Of a stretch of 64,000 bases of DNA, positions 1 through 6,000 are shown one piece after another. The stretch is from Escherichia coli (GTDB lineage: Bacteria > Pseudomonadota > Gammaproteobacteria > Enterobacterales > Enterobacteriaceae). A program made the position numbers. Positions within the stretch are counted from its first letter, which is position 1, and each line of letters starts with the position of its first letter. The stretch lies in NCBI RefSeq assembly GCF_003018255.1, contig NZ_CP027440.1, one strand, 5' to 3'.

Positions 1-3000
1 CTGAATTCTGGGGAACTGGTCTTAAATATGATGCCAATAACCTGTATCTGGCAGCAGTGTATTCAGAAACCCAGAATATGACGACCTTTGGTGATCAAGG
101 TGTTGCGGATAAAGCTCAGAATATCGAAGCCGTTGTTCAGTATCAGTTTGATTTTGGTCTGCGTCCGTCTCTGGCCTACCTTCAGTCCCGAGGACAGGAT
201 GTTATGGTTGGTGGTGTGAACCATGGCGATCAGGATCTGGTTAAATATATTGATGTCGGTGCGACTTATTACTTTAACAAGAATATGTCCACCCATGTTG
301 ATTATAAAATTAACCTGATTGAGGAAAGTGAATTTACCCGGAAAGCCGGTGTTGCGACAGATAATATCGTTGCTGTGGGTATGACTTATCAGTTCTGATT
401 ATTGCTGATAAGTATAATAAATACGGGCCGTCAGCCCTTACTGGCGGCCTGTATCAATGAAAACACAGTTTTCATTGGTCACTGCGATCAGCAATTGCCA
501 TCTGGCATGTGTTGATTTAACTTTCTGTTATTACCTTTATTGGTTTTATTTTAAATTGGACTTTTATTGTTCGGGGCGCGGTTGCGCCCCTTTTTTATGG
601 GCGGATATATGCAGGATATTCACGAAGAAAGCCTGAACGAGTCGGTTAAGTCAGAGCAGTCACCGCGGGTGGTGCTCTGGGAAATCGACCTGACGGTGCA
701 GGGCGGTGAGCGGTATTTTTTCTGCAATGAGCTGAATGAAAAAGGGGAGCCGGTGACCTGGCAGGGGCGTGAATATCAGGCGTACCCGATTGAGGGGAGT
801 GGCTTTGAGATGAACGGAAAGGGCAGCAGTGCCCGCCCGTCGCTGACAGTGTCCAATCTTTTCGGCCTTGTCACCGGGATGGCGGAGGATTTGCAGAGCC
901 TGGTGGGGGCCACGGTGGTCCGTCGCCGGGTGTATGCGCGTTTTCTGGATGCGGTGAACTTTGTGGCAGGCAATCCTGAGGCAGACCCGGAGCAGGAGCT
1001 GACGGACCGCTGGGTGGTGGAGCAGATGTCAGCGCTGACGGCCATGACGGCCTCGTTTGTGCTGGCGACACCGACGGAGACGGACGGTGCGCTGTTTCCC
1101 GGTCGCATCATGCTGGCGAACACCTGTATGTGGGATTACCGGGGCGATGAATGCGGGTATAACGGTCCGGCAGTGGCGGATGAGTTCGACAACCCCACCA
1201 CGGATATCCGGAAGGACAGATGCAGTAAATGCATGCGCGGGTGTGAGATGCGCGGCATGGTGGCTAATTTCGGCGGTTTCCTTTCCATTAATAAACTTTC
1301 GCAGTAAATCCCGTTTTATGACACAGACTGAATCAGCGATTCTGGCGCATGCCCGGCGGTGTGCGCCAGCGGAGTCGTGCGGCTTCGTGATAAGCACCCC
1401 GGAGGGGGAGCGGTACCAGCCCTGCGTGAATATCTCCGCAGAGCCGGAGGCGTATTTTCGTATTGCACCGGAAGACTGGCTGCAGGCACAGATGCAGGGG
1501 GAGATTGTGGCGCTGGTCCACAGTCATCCCGGTGGTCTGCCCTGGCTGAGCGAGGCGGACCGGCGGCTGCAGATAAAGAGTGCCCTGCCCTGGTGGCTGG
1601 TCTGTCGGGGTGAAATTCACCGGTTCCGCTGTGTGCCGCACCTGACCGGACGGCGCTTTGAACACGGTGTGACGGACTGTTACACCCTGTTCCGGGATGC
1701 ATACCATCTGGCGGGGATAACGCTGCCGGATTTTCATCGCGAGGATGACTGGTGGCGCAACGGCCAGAACCTGTACCTGGACAATATGGAGGCCACTGGC
1801 TTTTGCCGGGTGTCCCTGTCCTCTGCACAGGCAGGCGATATCCTGCTGTGCTGCTTTGGCGCATCGGTGCCGAATCATGCCGCCATTTACTGTGGCAACG
1901 GTGAGCTGCTTCACCATATACCTGAACAACTGAGTAAACGGGAGAGGTATTCTGAAAAATGGCAACGACGAACGCATTCTGTCTGGCGTCACCGCCACTG
2001 GTCCGCATCTGCCTTCACGGGGATTTACAACGATTTGGTCGCCGCATCAGTCTGTATGTGAACACGGCAGCGGAGGCCATCCGTGCCCTGTCGCAGCAGG
2101 TGCCGGGATTCCGCTGTCAGATGAACGAAGGCTGGTACCAGATACGTATTGCCGGTGAGGATACCGCGCCGGACCAGATATCGCCCCGACTGCATGAGCC
2201 ACTGAACCCGGGGGATGTCATTCATCTGGTTCCCCGGGCAGAAGGTGCCAAAAGTGGCGGAGTGTTTCAGGCCGTGCTTGGCGTTGCGCTGGTTGCGGCA
2301 GCTATCTGGATGCCGGGTATCGGTATTGCAGCCAGCAACATCATGTTTTCCATGGGCTCTGCAATGGCACTGGGTGGTGTGGCCCAGATGCTGGCCCCGA
2401 AGGCAAAGACGCCGGAGTACAAAAGCACGGATAACGGCAGACAGAACACGTATTTTTCGTCACTGGACAACATGATTGCTCAGGGGAATCCGGTGCCGGT
2501 GCCTTACGGTGAAATGCTGGTTGGTTCACGACGGATATCCCAGGACATCAGCACCCGTGATGAGGGCGGTGACGGGAAAGTGGTGGTTATCGGGCGGGGA
2601 TGAAAAAAAATCCCGCAGTGTTCGGCGCCTGCGGGAAGAGATACGAAGATTAACTTTAAGGAATTTTTCATTATTCTGGCAGATGAACTGTAACGCAGCG
2701 TGATTATGAGCACTACAGTCAGTGTGCGGAAATGTGAATAAACTCAGAATTTTTATTCACCGGAAGAGGATTGCCGGATATCGGTGGCAGAGGACAGAAG
2801 GCATCATGCCGGGTTCAGGGGATAAAAAAATCCCGCAGAACTCCGTGCTGCGGGAAGAGAACGATGTTGACTAACCTGTTGGCGTTTTATTTTTATTGAC
2901 CCGCAGAAACTGTAACCTGCCGGAATGCACTCTGCCACGGAGAATGACGGAAAATGTGAAGAAAATCAGAGTTTTTATTTATCCCGTGCATTCGTCTCTG

Positions 3001-6000
3001 GCGACAGAGTGGCGTCAGTAATGTCCGTGATACTGAGGGGGGAATTAAAAAATCTCCCGTAATACACCTGGATATTGACGGGAGAAACGAATAGTCACCT
3101 TAAGGAGTAGTTTTGATTATTGCCTGTAATCAGCGGGCGAATTGTAACGTATGGTGATTATGAGTGCCACAGGTAATTTGCAGAAATGTGAATAAATTCA
3201 GAATTTTTATTCACAGGAAGGGGCTGCGGGATATTGGTGGCAGAGGACAGAAAATATCAGGCCGGGTTTAAGGGATAAAAAAATCCCGCAGAGTTAGCGG
3301 AGCTGCGGGAAATAAACGATGAAGATTAACGTTATGGAGTTATTTTTCAGGCATCAAAAAAGTAACGCAGCGTCATTATTGCGGCTACAGGCAATTTGCA
3401 GAAATGTGAAGAATTTCAGAAATTTTATTCCGTCATGACACAGGCACCCTCCGGGGTGCCTGTTGTTTTTGGGCATAAACAGATTCAGACATCAGACAGG
3501 AGAGGGGGACAGAGTGGGTAAAGGGGGCGGCAAGGGGCACACACCGCGTGAGGCGAAGGACAATCTCAAATCCACGCAGATGATGAGCGTGATTGATGCC
3601 ATCGGTGAGGGACCGGTGGAAGGCCCGGTGAAGGGACTGCAGAGTATTCTGGTGAACAAAACCCCGCTGACGGACACGGACGGTAATCCCGTGATACACG
3701 GTGTGACCGCCGTCTGGCGTGCCGGGGAGCAGGAGCAGACACCGCCGGAAGGCTTTGAGTCCTCCGGGGCGGAAACCGCACTGGGTGTGGAGGTGACGAA
3801 GGCAAAGCCGGTGACGCGCACCATCACGTCAGCGAACATTGACCGTCTGCGGGTCACCTTCGGGGTGCAGTCACTGGTGGAGACCAGCTCAAAGGGTGAC
3901 CGTAATCCCTCTTCTGTCCGGCTGCTGATTCAGCTTGAGCGTAACGGTAACTGGGGGACGGAGAAGGATGTCACCATTAACGGCAAGACCACCTCGCAGT
4001 ACCTGACGTCGGTGATTCTGAATAATCTCCCTGAGCGCCCCTTTAACATCCGGATGGTCAGGGTGACGGCGGACAGTACCACGGACCAGCTGCAGAACAG
4101 AACGCTGTGGTCGTCATACACCGAAATCATCGATGTGAAACAGTGCTACCCGAACACGGCCATTGTGGGGCTGCAGGTGGATGCGGAGCAGTTCGGTGGC
4201 CAGCAGATGGTGGTGAACTACCATATCCGCGGCCGCATCATTCAGGTGCCGTCAAACTATGACCCGGAAAAACGCACCTACAGCGGTATCTGGGACGGGA
4301 GTCTGAAACCGGCATACAGCAATAACCCGGCCTGGTGCCTGTGGGACATGCTGACCCACCCGCGCTACGGCATGGGAAAACGCCTGGGGGCGGCGGATGT
4401 GGACAAGTGGGCACTGTATGCCATCGGGCAGTACTGTGACCAGACGGTCCCGGATGGTTTCGGGGGCACAGAGCCGCGGATGACTTTCAATGCGTACCTG
4501 TCACAGCAGCGTAAGGTCTGGGATGTCCTGGGGGATTTCTGCTCGGCGATGCGCTGTATGCCGGTATGGAACGGCCAGACGCTGACGTTCGTTCAGGACC
4601 GTCCGTCGGATGTGGTGTGGCCGTACACCAACAGCGATGTGGTGGTGGATGATAACGGCGTGGGGTTCCGCTACAGCTTCAGTGCCCTGAAGGACCGGCA
4701 CACGGCGGTGGAGGTGAATTACACCGACCCGCAGAACGGCTGGCAGACTTCCACGGAACTGGTGGAAGACCCGGACGCCATCCTGCGCTACGGGCGCAAC
4801 CTGCTGAAGATGGACGCGTTCGGCTGTACCAGCCGCGGTCAGGCTCACCGTGCCGGACTGTGGGTGATAAAGACCGAACTGCTGGAAACGCAGACGGTGG
4901 ATTTCACGCTCGGGTCTCAGGGGCTGCGGCACACGCCCGGTGACATCATTGAAATCTGTGATAACGACTATGCCGGGACCCTGACCGGCGGACGCATCCT
5001 GTCCATTGATGCCGCCAGCCGCACACTGACGCTGGACCGTGAGGTGACACTGCCTGAGACAGGTACATCGACGGTGAACCTGATTAACGGCAGCGGTAAG
5101 CCGGTGCGCGTGGACATCACTGCACACCCCGCCCCTGACCGGATACAGGTCAGCGTCCTGCCTGATGGCGTGGCGACATACGGTGTGTGGGGACTCTCCC
5201 TGCCGTCACTGCGTCGTCGCCTGTTCCGCTGTGTTTCCATCCGGGAAAACACGGACGGCACCTTTGCCATCACGGCGGTGCAGCACGTACCGGAAAAAGA
5301 AGCCATTGTGGATAACGGGGCCCGCTTTGAGCCTATGTCCGGTTCACTGAACAGCGTCATCCCGCCGGCGGTGCAGCACCTCACGCTGGAGGTGAGCGCC
5401 TCAGACGGCCAGTATCTGGCGCTGGCGAAATGGGACACGCCGCGGGTGGTGAAGGGCGTGCGCTTCAGTCTGCGCCTGACCAGCGGAAACGGTGAAAACA
5501 GCCGCCTGGTGACCAGCGCCATCACGGCGGACACGGAGTACCGTTTCAGTGGCCTGCCGCTCGGGGAATACACCCTGACGGTCAGGGCGATAAACAGCTA
5601 CGGCCAGCAGGGCGAACCTGCCACCACCACATTCCGGATTAATGCACCGGCGGCACCGGCCAGCATTGAACTGACGCCGGGGTATTTTCAGATAACGGTG
5701 GTCCCGCATCCTGCGGTGTATGACCCGACGGTACAGTCTGAATTCTGGTTCTCAGAAAAACGCATCACGGACACGGCACAGGTGGAAACCTCTGCCCGTT
5801 ATCTGGGGACAGGCAGTCAGTGGAGTGTCTCCGGCCCGCACATTAAGCCCGGGAAGGATTTCTGGTTTTATGTGCGCAGCGTCAACCTGGTGGGGAAATC
5901 TGCGTTTGTGGAGGCCAGCGGGCAGGCCAGCAATGATGGTGAAGGGTATCTGGAAATTTTCCGTGGGCTGATAGATGAGGCGCAGCTGGGGAAGGCACTG

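Follow-up and report, generated by a model that had tools for sequence, protein, structure and literature searches.

The stretch of Escherichia coli DNA studied here (contig NZ_CP027440.1 of assembly GCF_003018255.1; 64,000 nucleotides (nt), below called the window) contains the right arm of a lambdoid prophage, in which tail genes I and J flank a gap without any annotation. We consider it probable that this I-J spacer carries four independent small RNA (sRNA) genes of the family of PasB and EcOnc22-24, all on one strand and antisense to the late tail operon, and that their products are likely Hfq-dependent and trans-acting. The anatomy of these genes, their homology, position and conservation, and the distribution of array sizes were established in this analysis; expression, RNA size, Hfq dependence and partners in RIL-seq (sequencing of interacting RNAs after their ligation) are taken from the literature on the homologues PasB and EcOnc22. 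The family is already known, and two of its members are experimentally validated. What appears to be new is the tandem stacking, in arrays of 1, 2, 3 or 4 cassettes, together with at least 13 subtypes and a CRP-like site upstream of the genes.

The I-J spacer and its relationship to PasB and EcOnc22-24

Genes I and J were identified with the PHROGs and through an identical locus in E. coli 05-3629 that is annotated in RefSeq (Table 1). In phage lambda the two genes abut, and no unit is known to be inserted there. Since homology places the start of J at the GTG at 3514, the non-coding gap extends over 910 bp (2604-3513), and not over the 867 bp given in an earlier reading of this sequence (the original prediction). 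That reading had divided the gap into four tandem units, and the division was recovered in three ways. A repeat search of the window produced four-copy repeat families with spacings of 218-232 bp, an nhmmer profile of the units found exactly four in the window, and the pattern AATAAAANNTCTGANNNTNTTCACATTT, which has 22 specified bases and represents the best-conserved block, matched exactly 4 times in 64 kb, always on the minus strand and inside the gap, where shuffles lead one to expect 0.00 matches. The four diverged minus-strand units occupy 2604-2823, 2824-3045, 3046-3276 and 3277-3514 and are 220-238 bp long. Mean column identity is 68% in a six-sequence alignment that includes them, and Tandem Repeats Finder did not detect the array because the units are too diverged.

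PasB is an sRNA of prophage PP6 in the enteropathogenic E. coli strain E2348/69 (NC_011601.1, 1466343-1466261, minus strand, 83 nt) that has been validated by Northern blot, falls in Δhfq (log2 = -6.8) and was found in RIL-seq (Pearl Mizrahi et al. 2021, PMC8550237). When the E2348/69 region was inspected, PasB was seen to start 6 nt past the stop codon of the tail assembly gene, antisense to it, in an I-J spacer of 240 bp. Over its entire length, each of the four units can be aligned with the I-J spacers of E2348/69 and VT1-Sakai, both of which are single-copy. With the PasB promoter and RNA of E2348/69 as a single nhmmer query, units 1, 2, 3 and 4 were matched with E values of 4.7e-20, 8.7e-11, 4.3e-7 and 2.1e-19, and this search, which is not circular, returned no match in the 64 kb beyond the four units. 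The 83-nt PasB RNA alone, used as the query in the same program, matched unit 4 (E = 1.4e-8), unit 1 (E = 1.4e-5) and unit 2 (E = 8.6e-5). The published PasB Northern probe AATCCCGCAGTGATCGCGGAGCT, which matches the PasB terminator, also nearly matches the unit hairpins.

EcOnc22, encoded by prophage Sp15 of strain Sakai, gives a band of ~85 nt on Northern blots and is destabilised in Δhfq, and EcOnc23 (Sp14) and EcOnc24 (Sp11) are its homologues (Tree et al. 2014, PMC4104026, Table S2). Their Hfq-CRAC (crosslinking and analysis of cDNA) peaks map to the I-J spacers of these three Sakai prophages, antisense to the tail genes. The coordinates were published for an earlier version of the Sakai genome; after correction for an offset of ~+128 to +137, calibrated with the Rfam-located AgvB1, the EcOnc22-24 peaks sit on the body of the sRNA. 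The RNA of unit 4, the unit nearest to J, is 96% identical to EcOnc22 of O157 Sakai Sp15. Because the units are homologous to the PasB spacer, EcOnc22-24 occupy the same slot and unit 4 is nearly identical to one of them, PasB and EcOnc22-24 are, judged by sequence, one family, of which the window holds four predicted members. The PasB table (PMC8550237) draws no link between PasB and EcOnc22-24, and Rfam 15 contains no model for the family and reports none at threshold for the units, whose weak GcvB and anti-hemB matches cover the terminator only. The original prediction had proposed a moron-type array of minus-strand sRNA genes, and the homology of the units to a validated PasB spacer, together with the presence of EcOnc22-24 in the same slot in Sakai, bears it out; the other possibility that it had raised, structured regulatory elements, is not needed.

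Anatomy of the units

The four units, PasB and EcOnc22 have a common layout, in which a 28-bp upstream block is followed after exactly 37 nt (6/6 sequences compared) by TAnnnT, and then, 6 nt on, by a G that coincides within 1 nt with the mapped 5' end of PasB. Each gene would thus have a weak -35 element, an invariant TAnnnT as its -10 hexamer and a CRP-like site upstream, centred near -60.5; at unit 3 a promoter scan picks GTGGCA-18-TACAAT. Another conserved hexamer, which is TATAAT-like, is located 15 nt upstream and in PasB forms TTCACA-16-TATAAT. The predicted RNA sizes of 76-88 nt depend on a start deduced from where the 5' end of PasB falls in this layout. Transcripts of 150-220 nt had been expected originally, but the characterised homologues point to ~76-88 nt. 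Coordinates are collected in Table 1.

Table 1. Features of the I-J region, in window coordinates except for the last row
Feature	Position	Strand	Basis and remarks
Tail assembly gene I	1959..2603	+	Stop codon 2601-2603, abuts array; PHROG phrog_32 'tail assembly protein', E = 8.7e-80; RefSeq annotation of identical locus
Unit 1 predicted sRNA, 77 nt	2604..2680	-	A/U-rich 5' part 2680-2637, hairpin 2636-2611, U-run 2610-2604; PasB homology, folding, ends from PasB 5'-end register
Unit 1 -10 hexamer TACAGT	2687..2692	-	TAnnnT invariant in family
Unit 1 conserved upstream block AATAAAAATTCTGAGTTTATTCACATTT	2730..2757	-	CRP-like TCTGA-N6-TCACA at 2733-2748; 9/10 CRP core consensus positions
Inter-unit spacer S12	2758..2823		Homologous to S34; repeat family D3 copies 88% identical
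Unit 2 predicted sRNA, 79 nt	2824..2902	-	Hairpin 2855-2831, U-run 2830-2824, -10 hexamer TACAGT 2914-2909; PasB homology, folding
Unit 2 conserved upstream block	2952..2979	-	CRP-like site 2955-2970
Inter-unit spacer S23	2980..3046		Seen only inside arrays
Unit 3 predicted sRNA, 88 nt	3047..3134	-	Longer, different hairpin 3085-3053, U-run 3052-3047, -10 hexamer TACAAT 3146-3141
Unit 3 conserved upstream block	3184..3211	-	CRP-like site 3187-3202
Inter-unit spacer S34	3212..3276		Homologous to S12
Unit 4 predicted sRNA, 76 nt, EcOnc22 type	3277..3352	-	Hairpin 3310-3284, U-run 3283-3277, -10 hexamer TACTTT 3364-3359; fold z = -2.96
Unit 4 conserved upstream block	3402..3429	-	CRP-like site 3405-3420
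Terminator-like hairpin and T-run, J leader	3440..3473	+	Hairpin 3440-3463; -23.1 kcal/mol, z = -3.7; outside repeated unit
Tail tip / host-specificity gene J	3514..7200	+	GTG start; phrog_31, E = 3.5e-246; phrog_1727 aligned from profile position 6; RefSeq gpJ annotation
STnc100 and AgvB1 pair (Sakai Sp10, coordinates of stretch L128)	428-620 and 621-682	+ and -	Rfam

On the minus strand every unit ends, as had been noticed originally, in a hairpin and T-run: folding finds a stable GC hairpin followed by U6-7 in 4/4 units, and all 13 subtypes fold as a hairpin and then a U-run. A simple terminator scan flagged 1/4 of the unit hairpins, because their loops exceed the 8-nt limit of the scan. 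In the folding models the RNAs have a largely open 5' region of ~45 nt (62-70% A/U) with ARN triplets, and then the terminator hairpin and U-run. Each transcript of ~76-88 nt would therefore combine an unstructured, A/U-rich, ARN-containing 5' region with a Rho-independent terminator and a U-tail, which is the typical architecture of Hfq-binding RNAs. Among 66 distinct members with the common terminator the stems are nearly invariant (CCCGCAG in 63/66, CTGCGGGA in 65/66), 18 different loops occur, and one stem variant is doubly compensatory (CCCACAG/CTGTGGG). These stem and loop variants were counted directly, as the two terminator types misalign in the MAFFT alignment. Unit 3 and its relatives have a different and longer hairpin than the CCCGCAG/CTGCGGG type.

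It could be argued that the units are plus-strand features of the late operon, either small peptide genes (MKINV...) or terminators and insulators acting in cis. In some units an open reading frame (ORF) does begin just after the hairpin, its first ~8 codons are fairly conserved, and one real plus-strand terminator is present (3440-3463). However, the start codon is ATG in just 42/77 variants and ACG or ACA in 35/77, units 1 and 3 have no start codon, ORF lengths run from 7 to more than 42 codons with frameshifts, and variation by codon position is weakly periodic (0.55, 0.71, 0.93), so that the MKINV... frame was rejected as a gene. The unit hairpins were likewise rejected as plus-strand terminators, having no T-run on that strand, and the real terminator sits outside the repeat, in the J leader. 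We therefore regard a plus-strand function as hardly credible. The earlier statement that no small ORF is conserved between the units was confirmed.

The plus-strand terminator just before J, which was also part of the original prediction, was confirmed by folding; it might shield J in the lysogen from transcription that is not antiterminated. The J leader that contains it (3430-3513, 84 nt) shows an identity of at least 96% among the ~60 loci that match best, irrespective of the cassette subtype. A second, diverged type of J leader exists, for instance in E2348/69, and median pairwise identity across 106 loci is 70%.

The CRP-like site TCTGA-N6-TCACA in each unit matches 9/10 positions of the CRP core consensus (TGTGA-N6-TCACA), and the only four matches to that consensus with no more than one mismatch in the 64 kb are the four upstream sites. 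The site is kept as well in three array units that the search pattern had missed; the other related units do not count as independent evidence, because they were collected with a pattern that contains it. Its centre lies at -60.5 from the PasB-inferred start, one base off the classical class I position near -61.5 (class I sites may also lie one or more helical turns upstream of it), and at -44.5, a non-canonical position, from the alternative start. PasB reaches higher levels in overnight lysogeny broth (LB) culture than during exponential growth in Dulbecco's medium (Pearl Mizrahi et al. 2021, PMC8550237), a contrast that fits, without proving, our hypothesis that cAMP-CRP may control the units. 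An UP-element or another regulator is a possible alternative at the upstream block. With regard to the palindrome with 9-bp arms that had been described as conserved, it is present in units 1 and 3 and not in units 2 and 4, and the element found throughout the family is instead TCTGA-N6-TCACA.

The array thus consists of adjacent same-strand paralogues, each with a predicted promoter and terminator, as would be expected of tandem sibling sRNA genes. No source of the inter-unit spacers S12, S23 and S34 was detected in I, J or the single-unit spacers, and they occur only inside arrays. The idea that they are relics of the 3' end of I or the 5' end of J was rejected, as the similarities do not go beyond shuffle controls, including a 13-nt similarity of S23 to the start of J (GGCGACAGAGTGG). 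The exception is a GGGGAT-like stretch of 5-6 nt (GGGGAT/GGGAT) beside each terminator. Repeat families D1, D3 and D7 show a two-unit super-period of ~454 bp, which hints at duplication of a two-cassette block.

Distribution and diversity of the cassettes

Scanning IMG/VR with the block pattern identified at least 120 prophage stretches. In all of the 114 listed loci that include both flanks, the motif lies in the I-J spacer and is antisense to the tail genes. Most of these have a spacer of ~232-291 bp, corresponding to 1 unit (102 loci); spacers of 421-425 bp (2 units) occur at 4 loci, one of 715 bp (3 units) at 1 locus, and spacers of 907-920 bp (4 units) at 7 loci. Clustering of the cassettes gave at least 13 subtypes in the I-J slot. 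The subtype of unit 4 is the common VT1-Sakai/EcOnc22 one, in most cases present as a single cassette, and PasB proper forms a separate, single-cassette subtype. Among the matches listed, sequences closely related to units 1-3 were confined to arrays, in which their order never changed. Between loci, the cassette has a mean identity of 77%, lower than that of the adjacent 150 nt of I (90%) or J (92%).

Among 5,426 complete E. coli genomes, 66 contain the segment of units 1-3 at a coverage of at least 80%, with no feature annotated there, and 804 contain some relative of the I-J spacer. The genomes with the segment come mostly from human and bovine isolates, many of them labelled Shiga toxin-producing E. 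coli (STEC); strains with the array include E. coli 05-3629 and O113:H21 FWSEC0010. None of the INPHARED phage records carries the array. When one genome per species was scanned with the block (100,044 species), the matches outside E. coli and Shigella were limited to two tiny contigs, NZ_FWPT01000051.1 (460 bp, Parendozoicomonas haliclonae) and NZ_BAKW01000035.1 (546 bp, Asaia platycodi), which probably represent contamination of these assemblies with E. coli prophage DNA. The family appears to be confined to prophages of Escherichia and Shigella, in agreement with a 2026 survey (Zhu, Shabalina & Storz 2026, bioRxiv 10.64898/2026.05.13.724894).

Possible function of the RNAs

The likely role of the four RNAs is regulation in trans: their synthesis would most probably take place in the lysogen, at a time when the late operon is silent, and they would act with Hfq by base-pairing to mRNAs of the host and of the accessory genome. 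We infer that all four copies are expressed, where exactly they start, that CRP may control them and that they regulate targets in trans. Identity between their 5' bodies is only 56-76%, so that the target sets of the four siblings probably differ in part. In a lysogen, RIL-seq recovered chimeras of PasB itself with many mRNAs of the core and accessory genome (PMC8550237), and the summary table of that study lists 37 PasB interactions, if its unlabelled columns are read in this way.

Several points weigh against this proposal. The support for expression comes from homologues, and the array and the subtypes of units 1-3 are known from sequence alone. The functions and targets of EcOnc22-24 are listed as unknown, and PasB has no known function or target either. 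The body of the unit 3 RNA, taken alone, has no significant similarity to PasB in the nhmmer search with the 83-nt query; unit 3 shares with PasB only the promoter and part of the core. The upstream TATAAT-like hexamer could drive a longer precursor of ~100 nt, making the start ambiguous, and the CRP assignment is a hypothesis drawn from consensus matching and one growth-condition contrast. As the terminator stems hardly vary, covariation gives them thin support. Finally, four-unit arrays are 98-100% identical between genomes, so that conservation of the array says little about selection.

The anomaly of unit 3 also bears on the possibility that only some of the copies are functional. Unit 4 would be the likeliest of these and unit 1 perhaps another, and the remaining units would be decaying duplicates carried along by recombination, leaving in effect one sRNA gene and its relics. 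Units 1-3 (at identities of 95% or more) have been seen only within arrays and never as single cassettes, and unit 2 has lost the upstream TATAAT-like hexamer (GTGCAT) and departs in its core from the family-conserved ACUCCUUAA...UUAAUCUUC. On the other hand, all four units have kept intact the 28-bp block, TAnnnT at a spacing of exactly 37 nt, a stable hairpin and the U-run, and subtypes related to units 2 and 3 that have the same architecture exist singly (clusters 6 and 4) or in arrays of two and three units (clusters 1 and 3). Partial decay of this kind has, in our view, a small but real chance of being correct.

It is also conceivable, though we think it quite unlikely, that the RNAs act mainly in cis, by antisense pairing or convergent transcription, and so influence how the I-J junction of their own phage or of a superinfecting relative is processed or how stable it is. 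They are by construction perfectly complementary to the I-J intercistronic region of the late mRNA, the motif was antisense at one and the same position in every two-flank IMG/VR locus described above, and many cassette subtypes share that one slot. The RIL-seq chimeras of PasB with many core and accessory mRNAs, obtained in a lysogen in which the late operon is silent, argue against a mainly local action. Moreover, the nearest RNA lies upstream of J, separated from its start by 161 nt that include a strong hairpin, and the J ribosome-binding site is therefore not occluded. Action as a cis antisense RNA is compatible with regulation in trans.

Since the RNAs are perfectly antisense to the I-J junction of any phage with the same cassette, stacking four subtypes could serve competition between phages. 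As a long shot, the I-J spacer might be an exchangeable slot for sRNA cassettes, in which stacked subtypes serve phage-phage competition through an RNA-based interference with tail-gene expression. If so, related superinfecting or co-resident lambdoid phages would be the targets, beside or instead of regulated host genes.

Comparison with known systems

The original prediction had cited a precedent in prophages of enterohaemorrhagic E. coli, and sRNAs of such prophages, EcOnc22-24, do share the slot; the specific precedent of the anti-sRNAs AgvB and AsxR does not apply. Like the predicted RNAs, AgvB and AsxR are short Hfq-binding sRNAs of lambdoid prophages in pathogenic E. coli; their 5' regions are A-rich and of the ARN type, and they end in Rho-independent terminators. 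Anti-sRNAs of this type have a 5' region complementary to the seed of a core sRNA, which for AgvB is R1 of GcvB. They differ in locus, lying at the moron site downstream of PR', beside stx and the lysis genes. Their Rfam models (RF02702/RF02703) gave no match at E values up to 10 in 2000-4200 and none at the gathering score in the whole window, although the same tool found AgvB in Sakai as a positive control. In a test of complementarity that covered GcvB as the sole core sRNA, units 1-4 and PasB paired with GcvB no better than shuffles (z between -0.6 and +0.6), as against z = -2.2 for the AgvB control. Both the identity with AgvB/AsxR and an anti-GcvB function were accordingly rejected.

Among the closest known systems is PasB, with which the units share the I-J slot, the antisense orientation, the upstream block with its 37-nt spacing to TAnnnT and a similar size, as well as, in units 1, 2 and 4, the CCCGCAG/CTGCGGG terminator. 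PasB differs in being a single cassette in a 240-bp spacer, whereas four are stacked here in 910 bp, and the units are 60-75% identical to it at the RNA level, unit 3 having its own terminator and body. EcOnc22-24 share the slot, and EcOnc22, to which the RNA of unit 4 is so similar, is Hfq-bound and ~85 nt long, but each Sakai prophage has one cassette. A survey of pathogenic E. coli in which PasB had the second most hits among the prophage sRNAs found pasB copies to be at least 28 kb apart, none of them in tandem, and argued that Pas copies do not arise by tandem duplication (Zhu, Shabalina & Storz 2026). It used megablast with a coverage cut-off of >75%, and would miss the array units because they are too diverged for that setting. 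The literature on EcOnc22 and on sRNAs between tail genes, as searched here, contained no description of such arrays.

Adjacent same-strand sRNA paralogues, each with its own promoter and terminator, with regulatory sequences in common and with partly diverged bodies, are also known from PrrF1/PrrF2 of Pseudomonas and OmrA/OmrB of E. coli, and LhrC1-4 of Listeria are tandem sibling sRNA genes. These are core-genome loci with known regulators and targets, unlike the present array, which lies in a phage late operon and varies between 1-4 cassettes of at least 13 subtypes. A phage moron is similarly an autonomous promoter-gene-terminator unit between conserved phage genes (Juhala et al. 2000, in the form in which a citing paper gives it), and homologues of the units are expressed from the prophage; the cargo of the array differs in being non-coding RNA that runs against the surrounding operon and is tandemly multiplied.

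The array thus usefully corrects the way in which PasB-type sRNAs are counted and investigated, but does not amount to a new kind of system. The family has one dedicated slot in the tail operon; the alleles found there are many and diverged, and some STEC lineages carry four different copies next to each other. A single-query BLAST search undercounts its genes, and siblings may mask the effect of knocking out one copy. Prophages with 1-4 copies form a natural series, in effect a ready-made experiment on dosage and divergence in sRNAs acquired horizontally, and the conserved CRP-like site is a testable regulatory input.

Other features of the prophage

Protein I aligns through its C-terminal part to the phrog_31 'central tail fiber J' profile (positions 157-279), and J begins at profile position 263. 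Genes I and J are thus apparently fused or contiguous in some phages, and the predicted sRNA cassettes are inserted here exactly at that boundary.

The same tail operon contains a protein-coding moron, an OmpC-type porin gene between tail genes M and L, whose 3' end lies at 1-398 of the window and which continues upstream (RefSeq annotation of the identical locus in 05-3629). Directly downstream of J, where lambda carries lom, there is a gene for a Hok/Gef (MokW-like) host-killing toxin of 46 amino acids (7399-7539, plus strand); no Sok RNA was found near it at the Rfam gathering score.

Further RNAs are encoded by the same element. Near the prophage end, adjoining a gene for an ORF6N-domain protein, Rfam places a C4 antisense RNA (10713-10797, minus strand, 78.9 bits) and the Hfq-binding RNA IsrK (10825-10901, minus strand, 72.7 bits) side by side, a pair that resembles the c4-ant immunity module of the P1/P7 type. 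The prophage ends at ~11120-11250 in a truncated OmpW gene that adjoins yciE, yciF, yciG and the trp operon, and so appears to be integrated in ompW. The window also includes two ordinary chromosomal RNAs, the trp leader (19556-19649) and STnc180 (33589-33791). In Sakai Sp10, STnc100 (145.8 bits) directly abuts AgvB1 in convergent orientation, which is consistent with reports of convergent pairs of sRNAs at the moron site of PR'.

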